DNA from: Hyphochytrium catenoides
Lineage: Eukaryota; Protista; Hyphochytriomycota
Assembly (NCBI GenBank): GCA_900088475.1
Contig: FLMG01001116.1
Coordinates: 1-64,000, forward strand
Direction: 5' to 3'
Length of the DNA: 64,000 nt
Shown here: positions 187-47,166 of the stretch, piece after piece
Layout of the letters: each line of letters begins with the position of its first letter
Numbering within the stretch: position 1 is the first letter of the stretch
Notes under the pieces: model-generated
Database searches by the model: none
What the model was told of the DNA's origin: nothing
Seen by the model: the letters and a program-made list of their open reading frames with translations, nothing else
Made by a program: the position numbers and the translations under genes

Positions 187-1650
187 ACCTTCTCTTGCAG
201 GACACAGTGCTTGACATCTAAAGTCTTTGACTTTGGTCGTGAAGAGGAGCAGAGGACAATTGCGCTTTGGTTGTCCTAACTAATAGGGATGGGCAGCTGG
301 TTGAAGAAGCCAAGCTCGCCAAGGAACACACATTGCAGTGCTCTGCGACCTGGCTTGCGAACCAAAGAGAGACGCACTCCGCTTCGGTGGTTGACGACGC
401 TCTGAGAGATTGCTTCTTTGACTTCCATGCAAAAGCACCGCCGTTGAAGCTCAATAAATAGCCTGTGATAGACTTGCGGTCAGCTGGGTCGCTAGCCCAA
501 TCAGCATCGGCCTGGACAGAGAGTTGAATAGGGGTATCTCCCCCTAGACACAAGGAGTAGTCTTGGGTGGCCTTCAGGTAGGTGAAGATACGTTTGACAG
601 CCTCCCAGTGAACGTGGCGGAAGGTAGTGACGTGTTCGCTCACAGCTTGTACCGCATAAGCGATATCAGGCCGCGTGCACACCATGACGTACAGCAAGGA
701 ACCCACTGCTTGACGATAACGGGTGCGAGCCAACCGGTCAGCGTCATCATCAGAAAGAGGAATGGTAAAAGCTTTAGGCAAATACGTCTTAGGCACCGCT
801 GGGATAGGATTGGGGTAGGCATCAAGTAGATTGAAGCGCTCCAAGATCTCGGTAATATACTTCGACTGTCGAAGGTATATCTTCCTAGCAGCTCGATCCC
901 GCTTTACTTGGATGCCCAAGTAGTACTCTAACTCCCCCAGATCGGTGATGGAGAAACGAGCAGATAGCATAGTCTTGAGACCTGCAATTTGCTCGGTGGT
1001 AGGAGCAAAGAGGAGCATGTCATCCACGAAGACGCCGACGATCTCAAGGTCCTCAGGTCTCGAAGAGTGGCGCTTGACGTATACCCCAAAGTCACAAACA
1101 CTGCGCTGGAACCCTTGCTCAATCAGATAATGGTGCAGCATGTCATTCCACATCTTGGGGCTCTGGCGAAGACCATATATCGACTTCTTCAGCTTCCAGA
1201 CGTGATCTTCTTGTCCAGGGGCTACAAAGCCCGGTGTTTGACGCATGTACACCGGCTCGTCGAGATTGCCGTTCAGGAAGGCGGTCTTAATATCGACGTG
1301 ATGCACTTCTAGATCCAGCGTGGCTGCGAGCGAGAGAAGGCAGCGGACAGTGTCATGCCCTATCACTGGAGCAAAGACCTCGCTAAAGTCAATACCTTGC
1401 TTCTGTCGATTGCCAAGAGCGACTAGACGTGCCTGGTACTTGTCCACTGAGCCATCGCTATGCAACTTGACCCTAAAAATCCATTGCGAGCCGATAAGAT
1501 GAGTGCCGGGAGGTGGGGGGGCACTAGATCGTAAACCTCATGGGACTGCATTGATGTAAGCTCTGAGGTAATGGCGGCTAGCCATTCTGTGGCATGAGGT
1601 CCAGAGAGTGCCTCGCGGACTGTTTTCGGTTCAGAGACATGCAGCAGATT
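187..1650 (-). pseudogene. Copia reverse transcriptase-RNase H (RNase H truncated)
   Basis: EPKTVREAL upstream, then ORF 218-1465 with YQARLVA, HVDIKTAFLNG, LKKSIYGLRQSPKMW, FVDDML, YRQAVGSLLY, TRPDIAYAV, DADWA and SSTTEAE. The RNase H end is frameshifted and stops before the ADxLTK motif. Confidence 0.93.
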
Positions 1651-1806
1651 AGCCTGGCCTACTGGAAAAGAGAGAGAGTCTCCTTGTAGTAGTCTATCAT
1701 CACGACCACGAGTGATAGGACCAAGTGGAGAAGTGATTGTGGTCGAAGAGGACGGAGAAGAAGCTGCTGGATGATCTTCGTCTTCGCCAAGCTCGCTCGT
1801 CTCCGT

Positions 1807-3069
1807 TCAATCAGCAACGCTGCTCTCTGGCTCCGGCCCCAGACAGTCATTGGTGGGTTCCTCTGGACTTGCTTCGTCAGCAGAAGGTTCACTTTCTTTT
1901 TCTGCTTGTCTCGCTGCACTCGCTTCACCACTTACTTGCGCTGCTTCAGCGGCAGTTGCTGATTCGTTCCCTATGTTGGGAAATAAAGAGACATAGTCAT
2001 AATTTTGCTGTCTTTTTGCCTGTTTGAGTAGAAAGGCCTCAGAGCGAGACTCGTCGATAACCACATCACGCCGCACAGAGATTCTCTTGGTCAGAGGATC
2101 ATACAGTCGATAGCCATGGGTGCCAGAGTCATAACCTACAAAGATATACCGAGAGCTCCGCGCATCAAGCTTTCGCAGCATCGTCGACGGCTCTAAACCA
2201 TACGCAAGGAACCAAAGACGTGTAGATGATCAACATCAGGCGGCTTGCCGTACCACTTTTCGTACGGGGGTAGAGCCATCGAGTGAAGCAGTAGGACAGC
2301 GATTGATCACATGAACTGCGGAGGCCAATGCATCTGCCCAAAAAAAACGAGGTAGGTCAGTAGCAATCAGAAGGCATCTCGTCGCCTGCATGACAGTTCT
2401 CATCCAGCGTTCACAACAGCCGTTGCTAGAGGGGGAATAAGCAGGTGCAGGAGAGTGCAGGATGCCGCGGCGAGAGCACACTCTGCGTGCAGCACTGCTA
2501 ACGAACTCTCCCGCGCGATCGGAGCGTATCTCCTTCACGCGCTCACCCGTCTGGTACCCCATGGAAAGGATGAGTTCCTCCAACTTAGCTTCTGCTTCTC
2601 CTTTGCTCCGAAGAAATTGCACAAAGCACCTCCGAGAGTGATCATCCTCCACGAGCAGAAAATGAACATAGCCTTGATAGCTACGAGTATTGGCAATGCC
2701 AACGTCGGCGTGCAGAAGTTCCAGCAGTCTTCTTGTTGCCTTACGGGGCTGAGCGTGATAAGGCTTACGAGTTAGCTTCGCAAGAATGCAGGTCTCACAA
2801 AGACAGAGCTGCTGAGAAGCTCTATCAAGGGCTATACCGGAAGCCTGCAGGGCTAGTCTGCGAATATCTGTGTGGTTAAGATGATTAAGCCGTTTGTGCC
2901 ACAGGGTGATAGGCTCTTGCTTGCTCGTAGCTGCGGCTAGTCTTAGAGAAGAAGAGTCACTTTGTACCGGTGCATCGTCAGTGTCCGAGGAGTAATAAAC
3001 GGTTCCATTGGTCAAACCAATACGTCTCACTTGTTCTTGTGAGGTTAACTTTGCAATGTCCTTGACCAC
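1807..3069 (-). pseudogene. Copia integrase (HHCC, DDE core, C-terminal SH3-like region)
   Basis: LWHKRLNH...CETCILAK zinc finger; LLHADV, RSDRAGEF and SNGCCERWMR catalytic motifs; FWADAL...INRCP. KLDARSSRYIFVGY...GYRLYDP follows in the next frame (1807-2181). Confidence 0.92.
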
Positions 3070-6000
3070 TGAAGGACTGAGAGTGTCAGCTCCATTTGAG
3101 GTAAATTACACTGCTGCACCAGAGAAGTCTTGGATGTATTGTCCAATAGAGAGAAGATGCGTGACAAGGCTCGGGTTCATGATGGAGGTAGCCGGGAACC
3201 CACTGATAGCTCTGGTCTGGACTCGGAGAGTTTGGCACTGGGCGGCGCTCGCCACGATGCGGTCGTATTGCTTCAGTTCCATAACAGTAATGACTGCGCG
3301 TATAGTAGGATCCATGGGGTCCGTATCTCTCGTAGTACATAACACCCGCGTCCTCCTCTGATTGTGAAGACCTTCGCGTTCCTCCAGGTATAAAGAGGTC
3401 AGGGTAGGACTGTGACTGGCTAGAGGTTCGGCCGCCATACTCTCCCTTGTGCTCATCCTGATAAGAGGCATAGTATGGCATGGCGTAAGGAGTTTGTTGG
3501 TCAAAGCTGCTACGCCTTGTGCCTCTCCCATCTGCCGCAGGAGGTGGAACATCCCTTGGGACGGAAAATAGAGATGGGAGTTTCCTTTTTTTGCTCTCAG
3601 GGACTGTTGGGAATGCTCGAGAAGACATCCCAGGCGACGAGGTGCAGGAATAGTCGTAACCGTCCTGGCGTTGGAACCGGCTGCCTCGATGGTATGCCTC
3701 TTCCGGGTAGTAGACAGTGTGGTTTGGAGCTAGGCCCGGTAAGAACTCCCGGTTACAGTCCAAGGCCTGATAATCTAAGTCCGTGTGGCGGGAGTACTCG
3801 TACCTCGCGTTGTTGTTGCTACTGCTCCTACTGAGGGTGGGAGGATATTCTTTCCACTGAGGAAGAGGCATGGAAACACGGCGATAAGCCACAGCCCGGT
3901 GGTGCTGATCACCGGTTCCGGTAGCATCTAAAGAGCTTGTTCTGGTTCGTATGGTTGAGTTGTTATACTCCTGATGGGGTGAGATACTATGGTTCCGAGT
4001 TTGCGGTTGGTGATGAAGCTGATAGACGGAGTCCGAGATGCTCATCTGCCTCAAGGATGAGGGCGGAATCGATGGCCTGCTACCCGTAGCTCGTGATGGT
4101 TGGCCACAAATTTCTTCCTCATCTGTAGGAACCATGATGTGGGCGTCTCAGTGCAATATTACGGTGCCGTTCTTGTTAAACCCTTCAGGCTGACGGAGCA
4201 GTCCACTGTGCCTTTCACGTATGTGATGTCGTCAATGCCTGAGGCCTGTACTCGAGAAGGGCTTGAAGCTATCAACAACTCCTTGTCGGTCTCTATATAT
4301 CCCCACCAAGCAGCTGCTGTAAGGAGAGGCAGCCTTATTTTATATGCTTCCAGCGGGTTACAAGCTACTAGACAAGAGGAAGAGGATCGCTGCCTACGAA
4401 AGGCCTTTTTAGGCGATGATGTAGATCTCAAGAGTAGAAGGCCTCTACCATTAGAGCCCTGGGCTTCGTGGAGTGAGATCTTCCGGCTGAGTTTGCTTCT
4501 GGCATCATCATTTTTAGATAGGTCAGTCAGAACAGATGGGGGACGAGTCCCCGACTTTGATGAGCTCGAGAGCAAGCGACGACAGCGGCAATGCCAACGG
4601 CAACTCCAACGCACCGCTATGGGCCCAAGTACAACTACAAATGCTAGTGCTGTCTGTGGTCGGCCCCAACACTGAGGAAAGAATGTTATCACCAGATGAC
4701 TTGGACATAGCCAAGATAACGTCCAGCAATAGACTCTAATAACGAAGAGCCAAGTACAAGTTCCTTTTGGTGGGTGGGGGCGTCAGAGCAGGAGAGGGCC
4801 GTAGGTCGCAAGGTGCATAATCGTAATGAAAGCAAAAGGAGGCATAAAAGGAAGCTCAAGAAACAGAAGGTAGACCGTGGAGAGTGGAGACACACGAAAC
4901 AGAGGAAGCGCAATCCCAAGACGGAACAGAGGAGAGAAGAGACAGGGAATAAGAATGGTCAGAAATCTGAACCGAAGAAGAAGAGTAACAACCGCCAGCA
5001 ACCGCAGTTGCCCTCACACTTTTGTTAAGGAACATAGGGAGATAATAGAAGAGTGCAACGGTTAAAGTGTCCCTCTCGTGATATCCTCAGGGTCAGACGT
5101 GTATAGGAGTCACCACTGAGTGCCACATCATTATGGTCTGGAGTAGTACTACACCTACACGACTCTTTTGCTACAAAAGGACGCTTTCTTTCTTATGAAC
5201 AGAATGGGTGAGAAAGACGTTTGAACCGCACAAACCGCAGGCCACAACCTTGTTTCCTTGGAGTCTCGAGTCACACTTCTGTTCCATACCCAGCTTGCCC
5301 TTGATTTTACCACGGGGTTCGCATTCTTTCAGCAACTATAAGTGCTCGGGTAGGAGAGGCTAGACCCTAAGAGCTGATCCCTTGCAGATATCACCGTTTA
5401 TTGGATTGAGTTGGTACCAGTTGTTACTCTCTATTCCTTACCCGGACCCCTTGCAACTTCCCTATGTGATGAGGTTTCATTGACCCCTGTGCGGTGCGGT
5501 GCGACTCTACGTCTCCCTCTAATCAAGTGGGCAAGGTATCTACTGCCAAGTAAGAAGAAACAAAGGATATTGTAGTTCAGCATTCAGCATGGAGTTACCA
5601 GAGTGTGTCGTGCATAAGAGTCTCGTCTCCTTTCCGTACAACCCCCATTGTCTCGGACACGTTATCAGTATAGTTCTAATCTGTTACAGTATTGTCCCCT
5701 GTAGGCGTAGATAGCTCTAGGGGTAGTCGTGGCCATTATTATTATCACAGAAAGAGGTACTGTCACGTAGTAGTTCTACTACCGTTTTACATTAAGTCTC
5801 AAGCGGCGAATGATCCCAGCCTTTGAGGGGATTCCGTACAGTCCCGTCCTCTGCTAAGATCCATTAACCTAAGAGACAACCTAAGAGCCCTCTGAGCGTA
5901 GTGTGCAGCTGATTGGTCAAGCTCCTGCCCATAGGATGTGTGGGTGCAGCGGTTTACCTCCTTCCATAACTGGGATGGGTAGGCCACCACCAAACTTCCG

Positions 6001-8896: not shown

Positions 8897-10162
8897 CTAG
8901 CAAGCAGCCGTCTTCACCGCAGTTGTGCTCTCCGCTACGCGCCACTGTGGTGAAACTGGGGCAATGACTGCCTGCTGCTGGTAGCTCATCATCACCTGTT
9001 CCTCCTTCACTGGATAAGCCGGAGCCACTGGAGTGCTCATAGCGCGACAGTACACGGTGTTTGCAGTCGAGGCCGATGTTGCTGTATCTCCCGCCAACGT
9101 CGAAAAGTAGGGGACTGGCAGAGCAAAACTAGGTTCCGACTGGGCAGACACTACCATCCTTTGACGCTTGGTCGTTGACTCTTCAAGTTTAAGCCTCTCC
9201 AGAGAATCCAGGAATCTCTTCTCTAGCTCGCTGAGTCGCAGCAGGGCCTCGGTCTGCTGCGCCTTTAGAGCTTGTTCTGCTTCTTCCGTCTCAGCTATTT
9301 TAGGCCTGAAGATCTTCTTGCCCAATTTCTTAGGGATAGCATACCCAGCGATCTCCAAAGAAGCAAGCTTCTTTGAGACTCTCATCGGGTTGCAGCGCAG
9401 CCTCTCTGCCAGGTAACTTCGGAGCGTGACTCCTGGTTCTAGAGGAAGAATGCCTTCCAAAAAGCACTCAGTCATCTTTCTGGTGAAGCGCTCCTCGTCA
9501 TAAGTCCACTTTCCTCTGCGCTCGTACGCAATTAATGTCTCACTGACTGCTGGAGGATAAGATGAGGTTGCACTTCCAGCGAAGTGATACATAACAGTGT
9601 ACGACTGGGGAGAGTGTTGAGGAGAGTTTGGCAAGGGAGGAAACTGGCTGTTATAAGTGTGGAAACCTGCCTGGCTGACTAGACTTTCTTGCAAAGGATA
9701 GCCGTATACACCATTGCTATTATGGCTGTTGTAGCTCATGGCTAGGGGTGAAGTAGGGTCTGGTTGTGGAAGAAGAGAGGGTAGCCGTCGCTTTCTAGAT
9801 GTCTGGGACTGCTCCATGGCGGCTGTTCTGCTTGGACGGGGCAGGATTGCGCAACTGCCTGTGATCCCCTGAGGGCGATTGGTCCAAGTTGGAGGGATAC
9901 GGTCTCCCGATGATGCGTAGTGATACTGCAAAACTTCCTCGTTGCTATGACGGTTGGGTGACCCAGAGCCATCAGGTCTATCTAAGGCAGCCTCTGTCGA
10001 GGCCAAGAAATGGGTAGACGGCGACGTAAGTGAGGAGCTGCACGTTGAAACGCTTACAAGTTCTCGCCTCCTCTCCTCCAGCCCTCCAGCGAGAATGTCA
10101 GACATTCTCATAGGCTGAGACCGCTCGGATGCGGATGCGTTTTTGAGGCTCCGGTAATACAT
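8897..10162 (-). CDS. Putative stramenopile-type DNA-binding/regulatory protein (RRGKWT...CxPMRxSKK family)
   Basis: Single coding exon with first ATG at 10162, just after a 5' UTR intron acceptor. Conserved block RRGKWTYDEERF...FLEGILPLEPGVTLRSYLAERLRCNPMRVSKKL, then a coiled coil, with low-complexity flanks. The family is recalled from oomycete/diatom hypothetical proteins; its function is inferred. Confidence 0.8.
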   Translation of the reverse strand: MYYRSLKNASASERSQPMRMSDILAGGLEERRRELVSVSTCSSSLTSPSTHFLASTEAALDRPDGSGSPNRHSNEEVLQYHYASSGDRIPPTWTNRPQGITGSCAILPRPSRTAAMEQSQTSRKRRLPSLLPQPDPTSPLAMSYNSHNSNGVYGYPLQESLVSQAGFHTYNSQFPPLPNSPQHSPQSYTVMYHFAGSATSSYPPAVSETLIAYERRGKWTYDEERFTRKMTECFLEGILPLEPGVTLRSYLAERLRCNPMRVSKKLASLEIAGYAIPKKLGKKIFRPKIAETEEAEQALKAQQTEALLRLSELEKRFLDSLERLKLEESTTKRQRMVVSAQSEPSFALPVPYFSTLAGDTATSASTANTVYCRAMSTPVAPAYPVKEEQVMMSYQQQAVIAPVSPQWRVAESTTAVKTAAC

Positions 10163-12975
10163 GCTGCTGGAAGCCTTCAAAAAACCTCTGACGGCATACC
10201 AGTTGAAGCACTGGTTAAAAGCAATTGGGATGCCTTACCCGTAGGTGGAAGTATTAGAAGTGAGACAATAAAGATCAGATGTTATATGACTGAGTTTGCA
10301 AACTGTCACTGCTGTTGCTCTTTGGCCAGAAAGGGCTTCTGGCAGCAGGCAGCAGACATGTACAAGTGTACAGTCAAGCCACTACTGTAAGAAAGCTGGA
10401 TAAACTCAGCCTGGCTGCTTCTGTTGATTGATCGCTTACTTCTCCTCTCGGCCATTTATTATCACATACTGAGTATGTCAAAGAGGACAATGAGAATTGC
10501 TCTGCCTTTCGCCTGCAGTGACTGAGAGCTCGGTAGGTAGAGGGGACGGAACAAGTCAGATCCTATCAATGGAGCTCATACATAGAACTACCAACTACGG
10601 GCGTGTATCCTCATACATACATAACGACATGACGAGATGTCGCGGGTGCCTACCTCTCCTTTTATTTTCCTACTAGGCTTTGTTTCGTGCTTTGTGAATG
10701 AATAAGTTGCTTGTGCTAACAGACAGAAAGAGACAGGATATATGGCTAATCAGACGGCAAAGCCGAGGTGCCACCAGAGACAGAGCCGACAAGCGAGACA
10801 GAGAGCGCGAAAGAGAAGAGAAAATACGACTGCAGAAGTATATAAAAAGTGAGTTGAGACAGAGACAGAGCGAGAGAGAGAAAGTGAGAGGCAGTGTGTC
10901 TTTTATTGATGCGACGACAAGAAGGTGCGGCGGCTTCTGATTGGATGAGGGGAGTTGATCATCACTAACTTGGAAACAACTCGAAAGATTTCCACCTGAT
11001 AAGTTTAGGTTTCAAAATAGCTTCACCAATATTTCCACCATGAATCCTCGTTACCAAGCCAATATTTCCATCTGGACAGAGTCCTGTACTTTTCAGATCA
11101 CCATACCTCCCAACAGCTGCCCAAACAGCTTCTCAAAATCCACCAGGTACCCCAGGACTCATACTATTATTGTGCTAGCTTATTACCTCGGTATGACGTC
11201 AGAGAGGCATATTACTACATTAGAACTGAGGGGCAGGTGTGAAAGGGAAGAATCCCCACGTGTCTAATGAACGGAGAATCCCAGCCAATCAAGGCACACT
11301 AGTCATCTTCAGCAGCTCTGTGATTGGCTGTCTGCCCGTCATCATCGCCTGAGATTGAAAAGTCAAGTCCAGGGCAAGTGCGGCAAAAGGTTCCAAGAAG
11401 AATCTTCAATCTTTGTACGGAGCTCGAGGATAACTCGTGAGATGTAAGTAGAGAAGGAGGGCAAGTTCCCTGTGAAAGGACGAAGCTTGGGTTCTTGGGT
11501 TGGTGTCATTCAAGACGCGAGATTCGTTGGAGGGTGATTGTATCTCTCCTGAATTCACGGCCCTGCTTCCCCTTGGTAGCTTCCTTTTGCCTTCATTCTT
11601 TGCACACGGTGGGAGCGTTGTACACAGTGGAAGCTTCTGTTTACTTTGTTACTTTGAGCTTACAGGAGATGGAAGACTTCAGGAGGACCTGGGACTCCGA
11701 AAGAGCTAGCACCTGATGAGTTGTTCTACAAGCAATAGCGGCAAAGGACTCGCTTACCCTTGCTCGTAAGCGTTATCTTGGAACAAGAGGAACTTTATCT
11801 CTCTGTGTGAAACTCTAGCAGCTTGGCGTCTTCGAATCTTTCATAACCTAATTAGGCTACTTGTTCCTCGAGCTCAGCAGATGTAGTTCTAGATGAGAAT
11901 AAACGAGACGGAAGTCACCGCAGTAGACTATCACGATGTGAGAGCCACGTTACGTGAAGCTTGTGAATATCAGCTACCAGAGCTGGAGCTATTATAGATT
12001 AAAGAGCAAACAAATAGTAGGCCCAGCAGTTCATTGAATAGATGACAGATCTATCAGCTACATACAACCAACGTGGGCCATTATTAGAGCTCTATGTTCT
12101 GTTCAAGAGAGAGGACGACCGTTGCAGACACAGGCTAGCCTTTGTCAACTTATCAAGAGACATGCAGTAGAATTGTTACATGTCACCCCCCACAACAGCA
12201 TCCGCATCTCTTTCCTGAAGTAGTGCCAGTCTTACTCCACCAGTGGCTTGCCAGGCCACAGCTACTCCTCACAATGCGTCCACTGCAAAAGGTAATAGCT
12301 TCAAATGAAAGAAGTGGTGCTGCATTAATGATAACCCTAGACAGTGAATACCTGCAGCAGTCGCTCTTCTCGCTCTCCTCCACTTCGCTTCTTGTACTTC
12401 AGACGATGCAGTTCTATTATTTTGTTAGTTCGGCGGTTTGTATAAGGCGGGAGTCAAGTGGATTGAAAGGACAGCCGCTAGCCATAAGAGATGTACTTGT
12501 GAAATCATCATGACATTACTTCTACTGCGACACAATGCCAAAACTTCCCATTAGAGTAACGCACGGCATGCTAGGTCTTATGCAGGTCCTATCAACTCAT
12601 AGCACGACACCTTTCCAACTTTGCAGATCATCGGCACGGTAAACCACGGCCTCCAAGGAGGTACGAAAAAGTAGTCGCTAGGAGTCCTTACTGGCACGTC
12701 TATTTGGTATGTGCCTATGCCTATATAATACCAGGCAGGGAGCAAGAACTAAGGCTGCTTTTACTTAGCTTTCAAGGAGGACCTATTCTCCTCCAAGTAG
12801 CAACCATTACGCCAGAATCCTTGATAAGTTATAAGCGCTCTGTGTCCCGCCATCTCGTCCTCATTCAGTTGCCCCATTGTAGTTATTATCTCTTTGTGTG
12901 TCCACGAATAGCGGCTTCTCTTCCATTCGGTGTCGTCCATTCTAAGCAGAAGGACCACCTGTTCGCAAGATATAC

Positions 12976-35799: not shown

Positions 35800-36575
35800 A
35801 ATATACCGGCCTGAAGAATACTCACCACGTTAAGTCACGGTAATTCACTCCAAGCTAGTTGCGGTTGTATTGGGATTGAGAAGTGGGGAGTGACCTCCGT
35901 GGTGCACCGGAGCTCACGGTAAATTGCCTTATGACAGACCATGAAGTGCTAACAAGAGCAATCCCTTTCTGCCGAGGCCTTCAAACATCGGACACAGAGT
36001 CTGCGTTGTCTGTTCTTTCGCTTCTTACATGCGGCAAATCCTGGAGAGGGAGCAAGGAAACATAAGCCTTAGCTAGAAACCTAAAGGAAAGTTAAAGGGC
36101 TGTAGACACTTTGCACACTTCCAAAAACCTGCTGTGAATGGAAGCTTTCATTCCTTCACGAAAGAAACTTACCCGTCCCTTCCCTTATTAAGAACGAGAA
36201 AGTATAAACGAGTGCAAACTATTCTTTATTTCCAGACTGGAGCCTTCAAATCCTGAACTGTCAGATCGCATCATCAGAAACTTCGCTTTTCTGATGATCG
36301 GGAACTGAATAACGGCTGCCGGCTCCGAGCTTCTGCTGCTGATAGTGTCGCCATTAGCTGACCACAGTGGCGCGCTTCCCAAAGCAAAGCTTAGCTGCAG
36401 ATGCTCTTGGTTATTGTGCCTTGGTGTACATCGTACATCAAGAGGCTGATTCCGAGCGAACGATTTCCTGAGGTCCGCTTTCGTTACAATCCTTATCATC
36501 CTTGATGGGACGACGGTGATATTCTGACTGCGGTATGTTCAAGGAACATTCTATTCTTTCAGCAAAGGACCTGCT

Positions 36576-39088
36576 CTAAGCGGCTTCTAAGTCAACCTTG
36601 GGCTGTGGCTTCCCGACACTGTAGGGACCGCCACGGAATACGTTGCCGATCCTATCCCAAAGCCCTGGATCGCGGGTTGACAGCAGTTGCGACGCCGTAG
36701 GTGATCCCACCAACGCGTCAATTACGGAAAACTTCCATTCTTTAGCTTCCTTGGTAGCCTCGGTTTTTTGGTCTAGCAGGAAATCCGCAAAACCGCCGTA
36801 AGCAAACAGAGTCTTAACTCCCCAAGAATGAGGCTGGGCTGCCAGGGCGCGGAGCACGTCAAACGAGGCATGTCGCAGCTCTGGGAAGGGCTGCTTCAAC
36901 TCTGTCATCAATACATCCATGGCTGACGTGTGCTCAGAACGGGCCAAAGCTTCAAAAAATCTCTCCTTGAGCAATTGCGTCTCTTCGTCTGGTAAGAAAT
37001 AGTCAGAATGGTGGTGCTTGCGATGGGAAAGATCAGAGCACGCAGATTGGCGGGGACATCGCGCGACTTGTGAGTCAACCCATCGGGGAGATATGAAAAG
37101 TCATAGGGAACAATAAAAGCATCTCGTTCCATCTTCCTTACCCATGGCGCCGCTATAGGCAGGGGTGTCTGCCGTTATTATGCTTGTCCCTACGATAGTT
37201 GCAAGGGAGGTACCGGAGGCAAGGACTCGGGCCACCGAAAAGAGGCAGCAAGCCTTCATGTTCGGGCCTCCACTCCAAGCATGTGACAGCCAGGCCTTGA
37301 CCACAGCTGTGTCTTCAACAATCAGCCTTAGGGCTGCAGGAGATGATGTAGCAAACGCGGAGAGGGCGTCCATAGCTGCCAGCACCCGAGACATGGAAAC
37401 AGAAGGATCCTCCCCGGACGTAGCTGGAGGTAGCAAGGATTAGTACAAAGATAAAAAAGAGACCACGAATGGCAAAAGAACGCAAAGAGGGAGCGGTGGG
37501 CGACGATGGACCCAAGAAACTAGGTATTGTCTTACCATAGCGTAGAGCAGCTCTTAGGAACTTCAAGGTAGTCTCGCGTGAAGAGGACACAAAGACGCTG
37601 GAGCCGTGCTTGGCTGCGGCAGCGCTAAGCTCTCCCACTAGCCTTAGCGCTACAGAGCCCAATAGGGGATCCGCTTCGCTTTCATCACCTATAATGACAT
37701 GAGAGACCGTCGGTACCATGGACCACAGTAAGAGCTTATTGGTATCGAGGAGTATGGTTCCAAGGAACTCTTTAGTCTTAACGCAAACTTCAACCAGGAG
37801 GAAAGACAGCGCTGCTAGAGCTCAAGAAGAGTATCAGCCTACCCTGGCCCGCTAGTGCAAGCAATCGTTGCATGATATTTTGCGACAGTATGAAGTGCAG
37901 TCCCTCTGCCGATGAAGCAAATAGAGGGAGCAGCTCAATGACGTTTACTTGCAGAAGAATGTCCTCGCTGGCAAGTATCTCCATGATTGTAGTAGATACC
38001 TGCTCCCGGCATACTTCCATAGCCTCACCAGACGAGACAGCTATCCGTATTAGTACATCCAGCAGTCGGAGCTCCCTGTGCGATGGGTCCTCATGTTCGT
38101 GCTCTCCCACCGGTACTTCCCTTACTTGCTGAAGGCCCTTGAACACCAGGGACCACAGCTTGATGCGGTCTTCGTTTCGTGTCGCCTTAGAGAGAGAGAG
38201 GACGAGAGTGCAGGCCGCATCAGAGACGGGGATGCTCTCATCCAGTATCCTTTGAACTGCAGCTGAGAGCAGATCCACTGGGGAGGTGATCACTTTGTCT
38301 GCAAAGTCGGTGGCACATTCACCTGACCTATATACCAGAAAGACAAAGATTTAAATGGGTAAAGTAACTCTCAGGTGTCTAGATATGGGCAGCGGATGAC
38401 TGCAAGAGACAGATGGTGATGAGGATCTGAAGTGTGAAAGTGATAAGCTTCCAACAAACGGACCAGCTGGAAAAAAGCAACATAAAATAGGACGAGGAGG
38501 AAGAAAGAAAGGTATAGACCAAAGCGTAAGGGGTAAGGCGGAGTTGGAGCGCATGGCAAGGATCAAGTCGTTCGAAACGGTAAGCCCTATAACATGGATC
38601 TCAGAGGACAAAGACGTGGTAAACCTTTGTTCTGACGCTGTCATAGCCCTTGCCATCTGCCTCAGGGTAAACTCTCTGATAGCATGAGCAGGATGATTCA
38701 TGCCAAACAGAAGATAGGCGTGAATTTCATGGTTCGCTAATATGGACGGGCCTTCAGGACTCTGGAATACGCGGTCCAAACTTTTCGTTGCTAACTTGAA
38801 GGCCTTCTCCTTAACTGCTGCCTGACGCGTCTGTTCACCGCGTACTGGTGCTACCGAGTCCAAGCAGGCAAAGAGTAATGGGATGGGTACCTTCGAGAGG
38901 AAATCACGAATAATGTTTAACTCCTTCTCGGTGTCCCTAGCACCAGCCGTCAGAAGGGAGGTGTTCTCTAGCGCTTGAAGCTGCGTCCAAGCCTCTTTAA
39001 TCGCCTCAGGAGTAATATCTGCTGTCATAGTAGCTGAAGGGCGAGACTCGAGTGAAGATCCTAATACATCTTCTGTCCCTGCAACCAT
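36576..39088 (-). CDS. PSMD5: 26S proteasome assembly chaperone S5b/Hsm3
   Basis: HEAT/ARM-like body with EDILLQVNVIELL. C-terminus KQPFPELRHASFDVLRALAAQPHSWG...GGFADFLLDQKTE..KEAKEWKFSVI...GPY. Start is 39088 or 39028. Confidence 0.88.
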
Positions 39089-40054
39089 TATCTAAAGCTT
39101 CAAGCGTTCTTCCAGTAGCCTTTCTTTCGGGTCTTCCGCGCTCAGTACGTCCCGTGCCGATCCGACTCCGCAAGAACGATCTACTATAAGATCACCTGCT
39201 CCTCTCAGTCTGTTTGTCTTCAAAGCAGCAAACCTCGCCTTGCAGAGTGTACTATGGGATGCTCATCTCTCTAATTCCTTAGCAGAAGGCTATGGAACGG
39301 ATGCAAGACCTTCAACGTGGCTCCTTCCTTGTTTGATCTCCATTGTAATCAAACGTTCGTTGCTGTTCTGATCGAGCTCGAAAAGCCAGCAGCAGAACAG
39401 CCGAAGCAGGGCTGAGGAGCAAAGGATGTCACATGAGGATTCTGAGCAGCAACTTCTTGGTAGATAGATTCAGAACAGGAGGCTCTTTAATTGTATACCA
39501 GATATTGCTATAACTGATAGATACTATTCTGATCCGCAATATATTGAGTGTAAAACGCGGTCGCACAAACCCACCCCAACTCCTCTGTCTATTTCCTGAT
39601 TGTTTGTCTGTCTGTCTGTCTCTGTACTCTCTTTGTAGTTAGTTCTCTAACTCTGTGACATGCTGTGTCTTACACACTTTTTGCCTTTCAATCCGTCACG
39701 CTTCCTTCTGTTTATTACCATAGCACTATTTGTCCCTTTGATCGGACATTGTATCTACCGAGCCACCCTGTGAAGACAGGCTCAGCCGCCATCACGACGG
39801 AGACATCATCTTCATTATCCAAGCGCCTAGTACGGGCGTAGTATAGTCGCTCTCTCTTCTTGAGTGGCCTCCTCTGTATGTGCAGCCAGCAGTCTCCAAG
39901 CGGCGGAGTGAGTGCCTAAAACTGGGGTACCGGCTCTGGTCAGCCACGGAAGCGGCCGAGGAGACAGGTCGGCTCTGCGGGGTTCTGCGGGCCGGGCACC
40001 ATGTTCTCAGCACAGCTTGACAAAAGAGGTCTCTAGGAAGATCCATTGTTGGCC

Positions 40055-43000
40055 ATGGCGGCTCGCTCCCTCAGTAAGGCGGGAAGCTGGTGGCGATCAG
40101 GCAATTGGCCTCTCTGCCACCGCCTAGGGAGGTCGCGGTCGAGGTGTCTCTCTACACAAGACGCTGCTTCCGGTGACCCGTCTTCTCAGTCTGTGCGCCT
40201 GCCAGCAGTGCTGGATGATGCTATTGAACCAACGGTCCCAACAGGTGCGATATGGCGCTAACTTCTCCATGTACCTTTGTTGAGAACCTCACGATGCATT
40301 TCTCTGCCAACCCAGGGCCCGCTGCCCTGAGGTACAAACGACCAAAGGTGATAACCATCTTAGCAGCTAATCGGCCGGGAACAATCGCACAGATCTCGCA
40401 GATGCTTTCGTTCGTGGGCGTGAACATTGAGAGCCTGGTCAGTCGTCCGGTCACAGTCAGGCATATGCATGTTATCTTCATTCAGCTTGAACCTAAACAC
40501 TACGCCTTCTTAGGTTGACGTCTTCTGCCACTGCTCACCTTTCTAGACCTAACCCGTGGTCTCCATTTGCCAGACCTTCTAGCGTTGTTATCGACTCTTC
40601 CTAACCCTGGCGTTCCTCTTGGCAGGTTCTAGGACGAACTGATGTCCCAGAACTCTGCCGCATCACCATAACATGCAACCCAACGGATGAGAACCTCAAA
40701 AAGATTACCCGTAAGCTGGAGAAATTGGTAACGTTTTCTTTTCTTTCTTTCTGACGTAAGTTTAACCCTCACCTAGCCTAGATGCGTTCTGACTGCCAAA
40801 TGATGAACTCTGCCTTCCCTTATTATCTCTCTCCTCTCCATCCTGTTTTTCTTTGGAGGAGAGCCTCATGCAGTATGGCTCATGAAACCTCTCTTAGGTC
40901 TGTGTCGCACTTTTCAACCTCGTGGATACTCAAGACTCTGTTCCAGCGGCCTCAAAGGAAAGTGAACTGGTAAGATCTGGGTCGCAAGAAGGTTGTGTAC
41001 GCGTGCTAAGGGTTGAGTGCGTCTCTCTTTATAGGAAAGGGAGGAAGAGATTGTGGAGCGAGTACTGCTTATGGCCAAGCTGAGAGTGCCGAAAGCTGCA
41101 GCAGATAAGAAGGACTTCATCTCCCTCGCTAACCGTTACCAGGCGAGCATTCTTCATACAGAAGGCAGAGATGGTAAGGTCGGCACTGCGTAAGTCATCA
41201 GTATCTCTTCATTGGCCCTTGCAGGCACTGCTCGTCTCTAAGTAGCAGTACTATATCTGAGCTGTGCTTATTACTTAGGTGTCCTGCTGTCGTACAAATC
41301 TGCAAGCTATCTCTCGTATACTCTACATCCTTCAAGTAGTATTGCCTTTTCTAAGAATGCTCTCTCCTTTTTTAGGCTAGACTATTCATCGTTTTTCACC
41401 TGCCAGAGTCTCACCGTTTACGTAGTCCTGTGTGCTGCTCTAAGCCTGTTGCTTCCAAATTCTTAGCAAGTCCCTTTCTCTTCCAGGCAGTAGATTCGTC
41501 ATCATGTGTGTCTCTAAGCCTCAGGAGATGCACAAGTTCATAGAGTCTTTGAAGCAGTATGACATCATAGAGCTTAACCGAAGCGGGATAGTGACGATGA
41601 ACAGCACTCAGAGTACTCTAAGAAGAAGTTTTGATAGCAGTCGAAATTTTGTGAGAGGACAGGAGCATTTAGAGGCCACCGGAGGGAGAGAAGAAGGAAG
41701 TGAAGATGAAGAGACTAGGGAGACTATGGAGGCGACCAGCACAAACCCGATAGATAGCGGCGCCGGTCAGAATCGGAGCAGAGATAAGAAGAAGCCAGTC
41801 ATTAAAGCTAGGGTAGGACCGCCTATGTTTGTCTTCTAGCTTTTCCTTTCCCCTACTGCTTCTCCTGCTCATGTTCTGCCGTCTTACTTCCTTACGGCTA
41901 CTGGGATTATTCTTCATCTGAACTGTCCTTCGTCTTCACTTTGACTACTTTCCTTCCTTGTTCGATTGACAAGTTTTTTTTGTTGTTCTGGTAGGTCTTC
42001 AGCAGGAATCTTCTCCTAAAGCACCCACCTGGAAGTCGCATCTATCTCTTACCAGAAACCTCCCAGACAATCAGTACGCCACTCTTACAGTCTGCAGCAC
42101 AGAGCAGTGATGCTGTGCCCTCTTCGTCTCCAACAACTTCCTTCTCTTCCGTGGACGATGCAACAATCATGATTACCACGGAGAAAATGTACACAAGATC
42201 TGACGGCACGTACACCCCTGAGCGCCTCTCTCTTCATGAGAGAATTGCCAATCAGCTCTTCCATTCATACCCACAGGTAGATCCGTGTCCTGTCGTCGCT
42301 AATCTCTTACTCTTCCCGCTGACCTGACATCACGTACAGCGGTCCCTTATCGGTATACACTGTTGAGACCCCTACTTGCGTTCTCCGCTACCAGTCAGGG
42401 TTACTCTGTGGCCCGCTTTTGGCGCGGTGTAAGACGTTTCTCTTCATCTTGTCTCACATGTTGGCTATTCCTGGTGTCTTAGGGTCTTGCCAAGCCGGAG
42501 ATGCTACTTCTGATTGGTACCCCCGGCGCCGGGAAGAATACGGTTCTACTGTCTACTCTGCTTCCCTCAGTGCTGAAGTACAAGTCTATTCGAAACTATG
42601 TGAACTTGGACGTCGATGACTGCCTTGCCATGCTCCCGGAATACTACCATCCAGTGCTGGATATTGGCTTAGGAAGACATGGGCCCCCACAGGTAGGACG
42701 ACAAAGTTGAAAGGGAAGGACGAAAGAGGATGTTGCGTGTTGCGAATGGGAACAGATCTCCCTTCGATCAGTGATTGTAAGCTTCAGGTAGAATTAGTCG
42801 CGAAGGTTCGAATGCTAAAGGTTCATCAACCTTCGCCTACTCATGCGCTCGTGCTTTGCTGTTTCCCGTAACCATCGGCCTTCGCGTTATCTAGGAGGAG
42901 CTATTGGTACCCCTTCCGACCACGGCCTTTGCAGACCGCGACCCACACACACGTTATGCCATGTGTCGCGATGAGGCGAAGTTTATTATCCGGAAGAACA

Positions 43001-43572
43001 GGGACGCGGCAATTATGGCGAGGAAGAATATCATAGTGCATTCAACCGGCAAAGACTCTTCAGAGCTGATGAGGTTGATCCGTCAGGTGGGTGAAAAGCA
43101 TTCGAATGGGGCTACGCAGTAATGACATAGAGCAGAGAGGTAGCGTGAAGTGACTTAGTGGCGCGAAAAGTGAGGGGCAGCCAAGGATTTGGTTATAAGC
43201 TACCTCCTACCGGCAGCGCTCCAGCAGAGAGCTTACATATCTGATACTGGTGTATGTCGCTTACATTTGCCATAGGTTAAGGCTACGGGTTACGTGATAC
43301 ACCTGTGTTGCGTCGATGTCCCGACAGAGGTTGCGATAGAACGAGTAAAGTGCCGCAGCAATATTTATGGCAGAGATGTTCCTGAAGACGTAGTGCAGTA
43401 TGCAGCGGCGTCTCTCGTGCCAAACTTCACGCGAATGGCTCGCGTGGTGGACAACATCTACCTTTATGATAACACTGTGCGACCACCGAAGCTGGTCTGG
43501 AGCCAGCTGGGAGGGCGTAGCACAGCGTGGGATCCCCGTCATCGACTGATCAGTAAATATCATCTGCGGTAA
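40055..43572 (+). CDS. Fusion of acetolactate synthase (AHAS) regulatory-subunit-like domains and a zeta-toxin-family P-loop kinase, with a transit-peptide-like leader; 643 aa
   Basis: Ten exons, all GT-AG and in frame: 40055-40244, 40316-40437, 40626-40727, 40898-40969, 41035-41173, 41487-41812, 41995-42276, 42483-42692, 42895-43086, 43276-43572. ACT domain: VITILAANRPGTIAQISQMLSFVGVNIESLVLGRTDVPELCRITI...LKKITRKLEKLV. AHAS C-terminal domain: IVERVLLMAKL...FIESLKQYDIIELNRSGIVTM. Kinase: YTRSDGTYTPERLSLHERI, GTPGAGKNT, NLDVDD, KNIIVHSTG, GYVIHLCCVDVPTEVAIERVKCR...GRDVP, IYLYDN. Confidence 0.85.
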
Positions 43573-44131: not shown

Positions 44132-47100
44132 ATGGAGGAACTGATTCGTGACTATGGCCTTGGAGAGGTAAATTTCTCTTTTCCACAATCTACCACGTCG
44201 GAAGATAGAGTAGAATACTGCATCTATCTGCCAGCGTCCAAAGCTGTTATTGAAGGACTTATCTCTCGCGAGGAGCAGCTGCTGGCAGCCAGAGCAGCTT
44301 TCCTTTCCTGCGCTCAAACCTTGGTGGGGCAATATATCTGGCACCATGAACCGTTTAACCTCTCAGTCCACATAGACTCCTCCCAGGGAGAGGGTCGAAG
44401 ACGCAGCATCAACTCTACCTCGTCAGCCTTCCCTAATGACGTTGCAATGTTGTCTGAGAGCTATCTCGAGGGCTCAGTGCACTTTGGAGACAATCTTGCG
44501 GATGAATGGGTGGTCGCGTACATTCTTTTCGAGCTATCCAAGCGCCACGCCGACCTGGTCATCTCTATGACAGATAATGACGGACAATTTCTTCTCATAG
44601 AAGCCGCAGACGCGGTGCCAGACTGGCTGGAACCAGAGAACAGCAGTAACAGAGTCTTCGTGCGCAGTGGCAGAGTTCACATTGTGCCTGATAAGCCTCA
44701 GAAAAACCTAGAGTTGCACCAGGCCCTGATGGCTTTACTGCAGGATGGCGGGAAGACGGAAGCCAATGGAGCCATTCAAGCCCTGGTGCAGCGAAGAATC
44801 AGACAGGTTCCGCCTCTTCTCACGGAAAGTTTACATACAGTGCGGTAAGAAGAAATTCCTGTCAGCTCTCTCGATCTATCCTTCCTTTGGCCATAGTCAT
44901 TGGTGCTACGACCATGGAGCTCGTTGGGCTCTTACGTGCCTGTCTCTCGTCCACTGCTGTTCGCACTTAGAAGTGTGCTACCTGTGGTGCCTCGTACTGC
45001 TGTTGAACTGTGCCTCCTCGAGAGTCATTGATGTATACTTTTTATGTAATGAGAATTTGTACCCCTTAGCTCTCACGAAGCTGATGTTTCTCTCTGCTCT
45101 GCTTCTGTGGCCCCGCCTCTATCACGCACCCTGTAATGATTAAATGGTCTCTTTCCCCACGCTCTTGGTTGGTCGTTGCATACTGTCCGCAGTTGCATCC
45201 TTCCGAGAGACATCGCCATTCTGCTCCACCAGAAACCCCAGCTCGTCGCTGCTGCATCCTCGGCATTCTGTCATAGGGAACCTGGACAAACCAAAAAGGT
45301 CTGCAACAAAATGCGACGCTTTGACCCTAAGAGCAAAGTGCAGGTGATGGTCCCGATGACCCGATGGATTTATGCAGAACTCCTGCACCAGCACTTCTTC
45401 CCACCCAACGTCTTTGACCCCATGCTCCCTCTTCCTACCGCACCTGGTGTGGAGGGAGGGGAAGAACATCCTGATGCCAAGGCAGCAATGCTAGGCGTCC
45501 GCCTAGCATGTGGCTTTGAGCTCCTCTACTGGGAGGGTGAACGCTTATCGCACCATTCACAGGGAAGGGAGAAAGAAGAATTGTCCCAGCAACAACAAAA
45601 GAATGACGAATATGTGGAAAGGCTCAGGGTGGCACTCTCCTCAGAACGCTACCGCTCCTCAGAAGAAGCGTATTCGTTGGCAATCGCCTTTGGCAGGGAT
45701 CCCGTCAATAGTTCTCTCTCAGATGCCCTGAGCCTATATAAACTCGCAGCAGGGTTAGAGACTAGTGAGAAAGATCTCCGAGGATCCACTGCCGGACCAA
45801 GTTTCTCGCAAACATTAACAGCCGATGACAAAGATGATTGGCTGACTGTCACGCCAGACGAGGTGGAGAAAATGGTTCAGGACAGAATGCACGGAAGAGC
45901 TGGAAGAAAAGAGGTAGAGTGCAACTTAGACGTTGTCCTTTCGCCCTTCTCTATGTCTCTCTCTACCTTTAGGCCAGGCTTTTCACTAAAAGAGGCTTCA
46001 TTAGCTGCCCGTCAGTTTATGTTTGCTAGTCAGTTTGATGATTGCGTGCATTGGCGCAGGGTGTTAGTGCTAAGGAGTTCGAAGAAGACGGAGCAAACCT
46101 TGAAGAGATTGCAAGGGCCATGGAGCATTTTGTCAATAAAGTCTCATCTATAGAAGGAGTGGAGACCGGCGACCCCTCAGGTAAAACCAAGGAGGGCAGA
46201 GCAGTATACTAAAAGGAATAAGGTTTCTTATTTGGGTTGAGGCAAGTTATGAATGTGTCGCGAAGCTTGCGTTAGAAGAACACAATTGTTGGGCATCGGG
46301 GACCAGGCTGGCTTTTTAAGAGAATGTTTGACGAAGCACGGCAAGGCCATAGAAACAGTCGTTGACTCAAAGCTCTGTTTTACAAGGACATTAACTCTCA
46401 CTAACTAAGAATCCTATTAGGTGTTGGTGGTGATAGGCGCACTCCTGTCTCTCTGGACTTCACATCTTTGCTGAAGGTGCTTAAAGGTGAAGAACTAGAT
46501 GAAGAGCCGGAAAACGAGTAAGGACTGCTCTTTCTTTGCATTCTCCCATTTTTTCCTGCAGTACAGCTCTGCTAAAATCTCTGCCTCTGCTTTTACAGGT
46601 TAGACGATTTCTTTGATGACTCTGTAGACTCAGATGACGAAGAGGAAGAACCCTTCAATGAGATGGAGATTGAAGAACAGAAAAGAAGACAGGCCTCACT
46701 ATCCGCAAACAACAGCCACCAGGAACATAAAGACCAGGAAAAAGAGGTGGATGATAATATAGATATCTACGTTAGAGAGCTGCAAACAGAAGATAGTGAC
46801 GATGAGGATCTGCAAGACTTGGGCAATCAGGAGTTGGAGACTGCAGAGAGGGGGACTATGGGCACATTAGAGGAAAAGACGAGAACAAAAGCCGAGAGCA
46901 GCTTCCACTCGTATTTGGAAGCGATGGATGCACAGCTAGAAGACACTGCTATGGGGCAAACTTTCATGAGGCAGGAAACTGTCTCTCAAGGTGTGGAGAA
47001 CGTTGCCCAAGGACAGAAGGACCAGCCAAACCCGGTGGAGGTTGATTTGAATTTGGTGGCAAATCTATTGGAATCGTTCTCACACCAGCAAGGGTTGGAA

Positions 47101-47166
47101 GGCCCAGGTGCGAATCTTCTCAGAGAATTAGGGCTTAGACTACCTAGTGGAGAGAGTAAAGGGTAA
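44132..47166 (+). CDS. ECD: Ecdysoneless / SGT1-domain protein
   Basis: YIWHHEPFNL, FGDNLADEWVVAYIL, DNDGQFLLIEAADAVPDWLEPENSSNRVF, LGVRLACGFELL, DDDWL-like segment and PVEVDLNLVANLLESFSHQQGLEGPGANLL. Confidence 0.93.

Follow-up and report, generated by a model that had tools for sequence, protein, structure and literature searches.

What is a gene that encodes, in one open frame, a copy of the regulatory small subunit (SSU) of acetohydroxyacid synthase (AHAS) and a kinase domain of the zeta-toxin family, and what could its product do? The question is raised by a locus within a 64-kb stretch of Hyphochytrium catenoides DNA (contig FLMG01001116.1, positions 1 to 64,000; here the window), which is intron-rich eukaryotic DNA with a GC content of about 49%. 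The initial annotation had proposed such a fusion, with ten exons and 643 amino acids (aa), and sequence comparison confirmed that the gene is real: its nine introns are all GT-AG, it aligns in one piece with a Pythium homologue and its oomycete orthologues are fused as well. We read its product tentatively, with a probability of roughly 0.45, as a kinase, likely mitochondrial, that would be switched by branched-chain amino acids and would not be a working AHAS subunit. Its parts lie in the window as follows.

40055..43572, + strand: ten-exon gene for 643 aa, comprising a leader, an AHAS SSU copy, a linker and a zeta-fold P-loop domain (open frame, GT-AG introns, alignment with homologue P0007).
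40055..40156, + strand: leader of aa 1-34, rich in Arg and Ser and free of acids; likely a mitochondrial presequence (residue composition; family leaders alike).
40345..40918, + strand: ACT domain, about aa 74-145, exons 2-4 (Pfam; family profile against solved SSUs).
41050..41620, + strand: SSU C-terminal domain, about aa 168-253, exons 5-6 (ALS_ss_C over cut-off).
41621..42177, + strand: low-complexity linker, aa 254-378, 125 aa (family alignment).
41813..41994, + strand: predicted intron 6, bridging the SSU and kinase halves, with an in-frame TAG at 41837-41839.
42178..43569, + strand: zeta/PezT-fold P-loop domain, aa 379-643, exons 7-10 (Pfam; fold matches).
42516..42542, + strand: Walker A, aa 423-431, with Lys429 at zeta Lys46 and Asn430 for the usual Ser/Thr (alignment).
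42615..42617, + strand: Asp456, equivalent of the zeta catalytic base Asp67 (Asp in 59/59 rows of the family alignment).
43039..43041, + strand: His530, at the position of zeta Glu116 (zeta alignment, family alignment).
43342..43374, + strand: lid arginines R568, R572 and R578, predicted ATP phosphate contacts by analogy to zeta R158/R171 (family alignment).

The exons (1 to 5: 40055-40244, 40316-40437, 40626-40727, 40898-40969 and 41035-41173; 6 to 10: 41487-41812, 41995-42276, 42483-42692, 42895-43086 and 43276-43572; all +) splice to 1932 nt, that is, 643 codons and a stop. The spliced window protein and Pythium oligandrum P0007 gave a single alignment over residues 74-642 at 32% identity and E 1.6e-86, so chance is ruled out by a wide margin; a chance splice was likewise rejected on the conserved fused orthologues. 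The sites of intron 6 were scored with a matrix built from the other eight introns of the gene. Its acceptor ranked first of the 61 AGs in 41600-42270 (top 1.6% of 5,175 in the window), and its donor, with a score within the range of the gene's other introns, third of the 38 GTs in 41490-42270 (top 4.8% of 3,609 in the window). The GT at 41991 is a stronger donor-like site, the top of those 38, and an alternative junction from 41765 to 42056 (GT at 41766) likewise keeps the frame; the precise junction of intron 6 is therefore unsure. It is very improbable, in our view, that H. catenoides has two separate genes here, one ending at 41837-41839 and a kinase gene starting at ATG 42169 or 42187, or that its main transcript retains intron 6. 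The in-frame TAG, the site at 41991 and the place of ATG 42169 just ahead of the conserved kinase start would suit such an arrangement, but the orthologues are fused, Met occurs in the corresponding region of only 1 of 45 homologues, no stop interrupts the 58 codons ahead of ATG 42169, and intron 6 is the most T-rich of the gene's introns (45% T) and has the region's best acceptor. Retention of intron 6 would yield a 325-aa product without the kinase, and an ATTAAA at 41801, together with the TAG, would permit such an isoform. An upstream open reading frame at 40001-40036 (ATG 40001, stop before 40037), in the frame of the fusion start, could influence translation.

The fusion is spread across the oomycetes. 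A HMMER search with exon 10 gave 146 matches, and 5 of the first 40, which were scanned with Pfam, carry ACT_AHAS_ss and Zeta_toxin in one chain; those with a species name belong to Achlya hypogyna, Phytophthora fragariae and Pythium oligandrum, the last of which has an orthologue under accession TMW61140.1. Of 56 proteins recovered by a profile search, all 38 that carry an organism label are from oomycetes (Phytophthora, Nothophytophthora, Peronospora, Hyaloperonospora, Pythium, Globisporangium, Aphanomyces and Thraustotheca). One chain in which the SSU precedes the kinase, as in the window protein, recurs in Phytophthora, Pythium, Peronospora, Hyaloperonospora, Aphanomyces, Achlya and Thraustotheca. 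With profiles built from the family, 55 of 62 rows had both parts, 3 the SSU part alone and 4 the kinase part alone; the SSU part was found in none of the 138 kinase matches from outside the family (0/138). Both parts were also present in 41 of 48 further cluster members, and the ESM Atlas holds a single 60-member cluster (Eukaryota 100%, Oomycota commonest) under the name 'hypothetical protein'. The fusion does not depend on a splice guess, since the 526-aa fused protein P0168 lies on a 1692-bp contig and the 602-aa P0164 on a 1958-bp contig, which leave scant room for introns. A further profile, built on basal members plus six exons of the window gene and run on the 7,998 best word-sharing candidates, recovered only proteins already known and no named member from outside the oomycetes. 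A word-based search with exon 8 found no homologue among 79 candidates, exons 8 and 10 singly gave no useful match to Protein Data Bank (PDB) sequences, and two metagenome scans for family loci were empty.

Some assemblies have further gene models of the family. Second, shorter or split copies stand beside the full-length gene in Phytophthora ramorum and Peronospora assemblies (P0241/P0244, P0242/P0245, P0261-P0263), which suggests local duplication or mis-annotation. The Aphanomyces proteins P0195, P0197 and P0200 have 300-370 additional N-terminal residues; they are likely merged models, because other assemblies call the extra part a separate upstream gene (P0255, P0257).

Pfam, run on single exons of the window gene, bore out the domain identities given in the initial annotation. 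Exon 2 matched ACT (E 1.3e-4) and exon 3 ACT_AHAS_ss (0.014); exon 6 matched ALS_ss_C over the curated cut-off (E 5.9e-7), as exon 8 did Zeta_toxin (E 1.4e-5), and exon 10 matched Zeta_toxin at 0.0024. The basic, acid-free leader stood as well: its 34 residues hold 6 Arg, 1 Lys and 7 Ser and no Asp or Glu, and among 37 family rows whose leader starts with Met, 29 carry three or more Arg/Lys and no more than one acid within the first 25 residues. The leader is thus, by its composition, likely a mitochondrial presequence. The linker measures 8 aa in four Saprolegniales and 62-90 in Peronosporales/Pythiales, compared with 125 in the window protein. Mean pairwise identity among ten representatives was 52.9% for the kinase, 48.0% for the ACT domain, 29.0% for the SSU C-terminal domain and 21.5% for the linker. 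Judged from these identities, the kinase domain is the best-conserved part of the fusion and under strong selection.

The first half has the layout of AHAS regulatory subunits, an ACT domain and then a C-terminal domain, by Pfam, profile and fold. AHAS small subunits of solved structure matched the family profile with E values from 2.5e-17 to 3e-11, and a predicted model of P0007 resembled them at E 5.9e-8. We take N11, G14, N29 and I30 of IlvH to be residues of the valine pocket. Their equivalents are kept in the family: N82 in 39/42 rows, G85 in 49/50, N100 in 51/52 and Ile or Val at 101 in 52/52. Arg26 and Asp69 of E. coli IlvH are, we assume, key contacts with the catalytic subunit; the window protein has Val97 and Cys140 at these positions. 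The Arg of the motif RG[YF]NI is found in 0/52 family rows against 6/6 of the ordinary SSU repeats compared, and the Asp69 site is acidic in 0/55 against 4/6. Only the window protein has the Pfam match to ALS_ss_C, which is absent from seven full or near-full homologues and five others scanned, and its SSU C-terminal domain is nearer the ordinary consensus than that of crown oomycetes. We also observed a family-specific motif in the ACT hairpin, T-x-V-P-E-L-x-R, encoded by exon 3 at aa 109-116 of the window protein; its Pro112 and Glu113 occur in 53/53 rows. Glu113, which the ordinary SSUs compared do not have, is a candidate for contact with the kinase or a ligand.

These data bear on the idea that the SSU copy senses amino acids no longer and serves a constitutive kinase as import tag and oligomerisation scaffold. 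The drift of its C-terminal domain (29% mean identity), the large inserts there in Peronosporales and the freely varying linker agree with this. The retention of the pocket residues in nearly all rows does not, nor does an ACT conservation near that of the kinase (48.0 vs 52.9%), and we consider a scaffold of this kind quite unlikely.

Does the fusion serve as the AHAS subunit? The Phytophthora infestans member of the family is PITG_04491, and a second gene there, PITG_03410, carries the annotation of AHAS regulatory subunit and has an orthologue, PYU1_G000792, in P. ultimum (PMC5635513 supplement, in part). Over seven P. infestans conditions, the fusion had 14.5-30 counts per million (CPM), the annotated SSU 61-594 and the catalytic subunit 25-749 (PMC5635513, in part). 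In these data the ratio of annotated SSU to fusion was 4.2-20.7, and expression ranged 2.1-fold for the fusion, 9.7-fold for the annotated SSU and 30-fold for the catalytic subunit. The fusion locus is therefore transcribed in at least one species, where it resembles a low-level paralogue. That the fusion is the sole AHAS small subunit was rejected on the separate annotated gene in P. infestans and P. ultimum. Because that separate subunit is more abundant and the RG[YF]NI Arg is missing from the family, the fusion is probably a paralogue and not the working AHAS subunit. The same two facts weaken the proposal, made in the initial annotation, of an AHAS subunit with a built-in nucleotide sensor.

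For the second half, a model of the kinase domain was made from P0004 (pLDDT 91.7) and compared by Foldseek. Its fold matches were zeta/PezT (E 1.8e-10, TM about 0.6), then AvrRxo1, then polynucleotide and adenylate kinases. In the alignment with Streptococcus pyogenes zeta, K46 fell on K429, D67 on D456, K70 on L459 and E116 on H530. The Walker A Lys is kept in 58/58 non-gap family rows, and the lid arginines R568, R572 and R578 in 57/58, 58/58 and 57/58; zeta Asp67, to which the invariant Asp456 corresponds, is the proposed catalytic base (PMC3062530, in part). Position 459 is Ile or Leu in 58/59 family rows, compared with Lys or Arg in 47 of 52 rows from outside the family. The equivalents of the zeta contacts with UDP-N-acetylglucosamine (UDP-GlcNAc), namely Glu100, Thr128 and the Lys three past the base, are not kept, as mapped by hand from the zeta alignment. 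Other acceptor-side motifs (LPE[FY]Y, R501-Y502, C505 and E508) are nearly invariant in the family. The zeta P-loop domain, which had been described as complete, is so in its fold and not in its Mg site, where Asn430 and His530 are both non-canonical. A UDP-GlcNAc kinase was rejected on the lost contact residues. No scanned exon matched an epsilon antitoxin and the neighbouring genes are Proteasom_PSMB and SGT1; a toxin-antitoxin pair was rejected on the absent antitoxin and this eukaryotic housekeeping context.

The idea of an amino-acid-gated kinase gained support. It would work as follows. A duplicated AHAS SSU would have lost its grip on the catalytic subunit while retaining the amino-acid pocket. 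The leader would import the protein into the mitochondrial matrix, where its ACT domains would form a dimer and take up valine or a related amino acid in the retained pocket. As in other enzymes under ACT control, the ligand would shift this dimer and so change how active the attached kinase is; the kinase would use ATP and Asp456 to phosphorylate a hydroxyl group. A sensor would have no obvious need for the invariant catalytic base. Nucleotide sugars or dinucleotides are the substrates of all the nearest characterised folds, and by that analogy the most likely acceptor is a sugar hydroxyl on a nucleotide cofactor; NAD(H), dephospho-CoA and an adenine nucleotide would be the first candidates. 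UDP-GlcNAc appears unlikely as acceptor, as its contact residues are not kept.

One form of this kinase, put forward in the initial annotation, would act on NAD(H) and supply matrix 2'-NADP(H) to ketol-acid reductoisomerase until shut off by valine. Plants have a genuine NAD kinase that combines a zeta domain with a regulatory domain at the N terminus (10.1101/521658), the fold neighbour AvrRxo1 phosphorylates NAD at the 3' position (PMC5087710, in part), and both the AHAS catalytic subunit and ketol-acid reductoisomerase are annotated as mitochondrial in P. infestans (PMC5635513, in part). This species, however, already has two genes annotated in that source as NADH kinases, PITG_00257 and PITG_02750, for which reason we hold the NAD form to be a decidedly doubtful special case of the amino-acid-switched kinase. 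The domain organisation of the plant enzyme, NADKc, is moreover reported in plants and some algae only (10.1101/521658), and expression of the fusion in the P. infestans data is low and nearly flat.

Several observations weigh against an amino-acid-switched kinase, and the chief of them concern the Mg site. Position 530 is His in 59/59 family rows, compared with Asp in 45 and Asn in 7 of the 52 outside rows. In zeta, Glu116 at this position may bind Mg, and the E116A variant was without ATP hydrolysis (PMC6356619, in part). In the window protein and P0005 the Walker A Lys is, in addition, followed by Asn; their Mg site is doubly changed, and catalysis may therefore be lost in these two. Shikimate, gluconate and adenosine 5'-phosphosulfate kinases are active P-loop kinases without this acid, so that His530 is no proof of a dead enzyme. 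By analogy with the shikimate and gluconate kinases, Asp454 may substitute for the lost acidic Mg ligand. On the SSU side, one family protein, P0001, reached 61 bits against TIGR00119, the SSU equivalog with a cut-off of 56.9 bits (the other four family proteins 41-50), PITG_03410 is known here by its annotation alone and not by its sequence, and the CPM of fusion and catalytic subunit were correlated in the P. infestans data (Spearman 0.93, n=7), which may fit a link to AHAS or merely growth phase. In a 576-aa full-length model (predicted TM score 0.46) the relative placement of the SSU and kinase halves was not fixed, and a fixed contact between them is disfavoured because linkers span 8-125 aa. 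Finally, gene models are split in some assemblies (P0004/P0206, P0241/P0244, P0242/P0245), and these may be annotation errors or genuine fissions.

Part of this evidence would also suit a pseudokinase, able to bind ATP or ADP but not to turn it over. The protein would then be a second, minor regulatory subunit, mixed with the ordinary SSU, that makes AHAS energy-responsive. The yeast AHAS small subunit gives an ATP response through an ATP site of its own. An invariant His at the essential Glu116 site, the retained P-loop Lys and lid arginines, an SSU fold that is entire down to its C-terminal domain, and an expression that ranks with that of the catalytic subunit in P. infestans all agree with such a subunit. 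It leaves without explanation the nearly invariant catalytic Asp and acceptor-side motifs, the loss of the RG[YF]NI Arg, a transcript 4 to 21 times under that of the ordinary subunit in the same data, and the free-standing sister proteins described below, which have a changed Mg site and yet no SSU. We regard the pseudokinase as somewhat unlikely, and retain the amino-acid-switched kinase as our reading.

Where did the kinase domain come from? A quick, unrooted kinase-domain tree was made of 78 rows, 26 chosen from the family and the 52 of the 138 outside matches that passed a coverage filter. A single branch separates the family from the other rows (SH-aLRT 97), and within the family the window protein diverges earliest; its source is therefore likely an early-branching oomycete or a close relative. 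Saprolegniales are separate from Peronosporales/Pythiales in the trees of both halves; in that of the SSU part the place of the window protein is unsure because long branches meet there. The sister group of the family's kinase in the quick tree consists of seven metagenomic proteins (SH-aLRT 99 for family plus sister), which are free-standing, lack an SSU and have Asn at both Mg-site positions; family and sister-group profiles matched at E 1.8e-40 over 200 columns. The small free-standing zeta subfamily with this Asn pair includes L004 4996-6465 and P0058, P0064, P0066, P0078, P0111 and P0141. A gene-dense contig labelled GVMAG, presumably a giant-virus genome bin, encodes the sister protein P0068 at 100% identity. 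The subfamily member on the contig so labelled adjoins DNA-ligase-like and ABC-transporter-like genes (labelled by eye). Zeta-fold proteins occur in phages and giant viruses at 12-22% identity, and viral contigs scanned with a profile yielded three distant matches at 23-26%; single-protein scans of the viral collection did not find the sister proteins P0111, P0058 and P0066. P0068 and the viral zeta-fold proteins make an exchange of the kinase with a giant virus, in either direction, a lead. In its fullest form our account would join an SSU duplication in an early oomycete to a zeta kinase exchanged with giant viruses, as a mitochondrial Val/Leu/Ile sensor that makes a phosphorylated nucleotide signal or cofactor through a His-based site unlike that of any characterised zeta enzyme, from free-living moulds to obligate downy mildews, with the window protein as the earliest branch. 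This joint claim, its His-based site included, we consider unlikely.

Both genes that flank the fusion in the window are housekeeping genes: a Proteasom_PSMB (PSMD5-like) gene at 36188-39091 (-), divergently upstream, and an SGT1/ecdysoneless-like gene at 44132-47166 (+), about 560 bases downstream. Elsewhere in the window, a copia-like retroelement lies at 218-3729 (-), with RVT_2, rve and gag_pre-integrs in several separate frames. A 445-aa frame at 8897-10234 (-) has no Pfam match and carries a 'W..EE..F...LRSYLAERLRCNPMR.SKK'-type motif, presumably that of stramenopile DNA-binding proteins.

The initial annotation did not see that the pairing extends across the oomycetes and is present in databases under names of a single domain, nor that the Mg-site acid is His family-wide. 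The database entries read 'acetolactate synthase small subunit', 'Zeta toxin' or 'ACT domain-containing'; such names can mislead metabolic models, and the present analysis corrects the annotation. Seidl et al. in 2011 reportedly listed 53 oomycete-specific architectures, which may include the SSU-zeta pairing. That the fusion might be both widespread and characterised had been foreseen: it is widespread in oomycetes, and no description of the pairing was found in the literature searched, a search outside of which most subscription papers lie. The pairing does not appear among the 275 rows of the PMC2705460 fusion table (terms of the main text and two supplements), in Tables S2 and S4 of PMC5795050 or, by term search, in the readable supplements of PMC5023847. 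The fusion is a real, oomycete-wide and apparently unstudied variant of the theme of ACT-regulated enzymes. To our knowledge, mitochondrial amino-acid sensing in oomycetes is unstudied. For this one conserved, lineage-restricted protein, branched-chain amino acids are the predicted input and phosphotransfer the predicted output, and both lend themselves to direct assay. If the reading is true, a whole AHAS SSU was reused to control another enzyme, and a toxin-family kinase was domesticated for core metabolism, in parallel to plant NADKc. Crop and fish pathogens retain the protein, and it was found in no other named lineage; for this reason it would be a possible control target, if essential.

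How does the fusion compare with known systems? With AHAS small subunits (IlvH, yeast Ilv6, plant RSU; TIGR00119; PDB 2f1f, 2fgc, 2pc6, 6u9d, 6u9h) it has in common the ACT and C-terminal domain fold, the amino-acid pocket residues and an organelle-type leader. It differs from them in its 265-aa kinase domain, in the lack of the RG[YF]NI Arg and, in the P. infestans data, in low and nearly flat expression beside another annotated SSU gene. With zeta/PezT (PF06414; PDB 1gvn, 3q8x, 2p5t), to which identity is about 17%, it keeps the equivalents of K46 and D67, the T118 hydroxyl and the lid arginines, whereas it has His at Glu116 and Ile/Leu at Lys70 and does not keep the Glu100 and Thr128 sites. 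Unlike zeta/PezT, the fusion is eukaryotic, contains introns, has no epsilon antitoxin and is joined to an SSU copy. In aspartokinase, SerB and GlnD, an ACT module that binds amino acids controls a fused catalytic domain; in the fusion the module is an entire AHAS SSU and the catalytic domain is of the zeta family.

The nearest sequence relatives of the kinase are zeta-like kinases of phages and giant viruses (MuF, eCIS, InPase and RadC fusions, and free-standing giant-virus forms), from which the fusion differs by its SSU part, found in 0/138 of the outside matches; the MuF-fused forms are treated as conflict effectors (PMC5512222, in part). AvrRxo1, a 3'-NAD kinase effector of Xanthomonas, is a fold neighbour (E 8.1e-9) that, like the fusion family, keeps the ATP residues of zeta and not its UDP-GlcNAc residues (PMC5087710, in part). 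It is, however, a secreted bacterial effector with a chaperone/antitoxin and without a sensor domain, at 15-16% identity. Plant NADKc (At1g04280) is also a eukaryotic zeta-domain protein with an N-terminal regulatory part and is associated with mitochondria (10.1101/521658). NADKc is regulated by calmodulin, is anchored in the outer membrane and has no ACT domain; where it has an N-terminal membrane anchor and a 200-aa calmodulin-binding domain, the fusion has the AHAS SSU fold.

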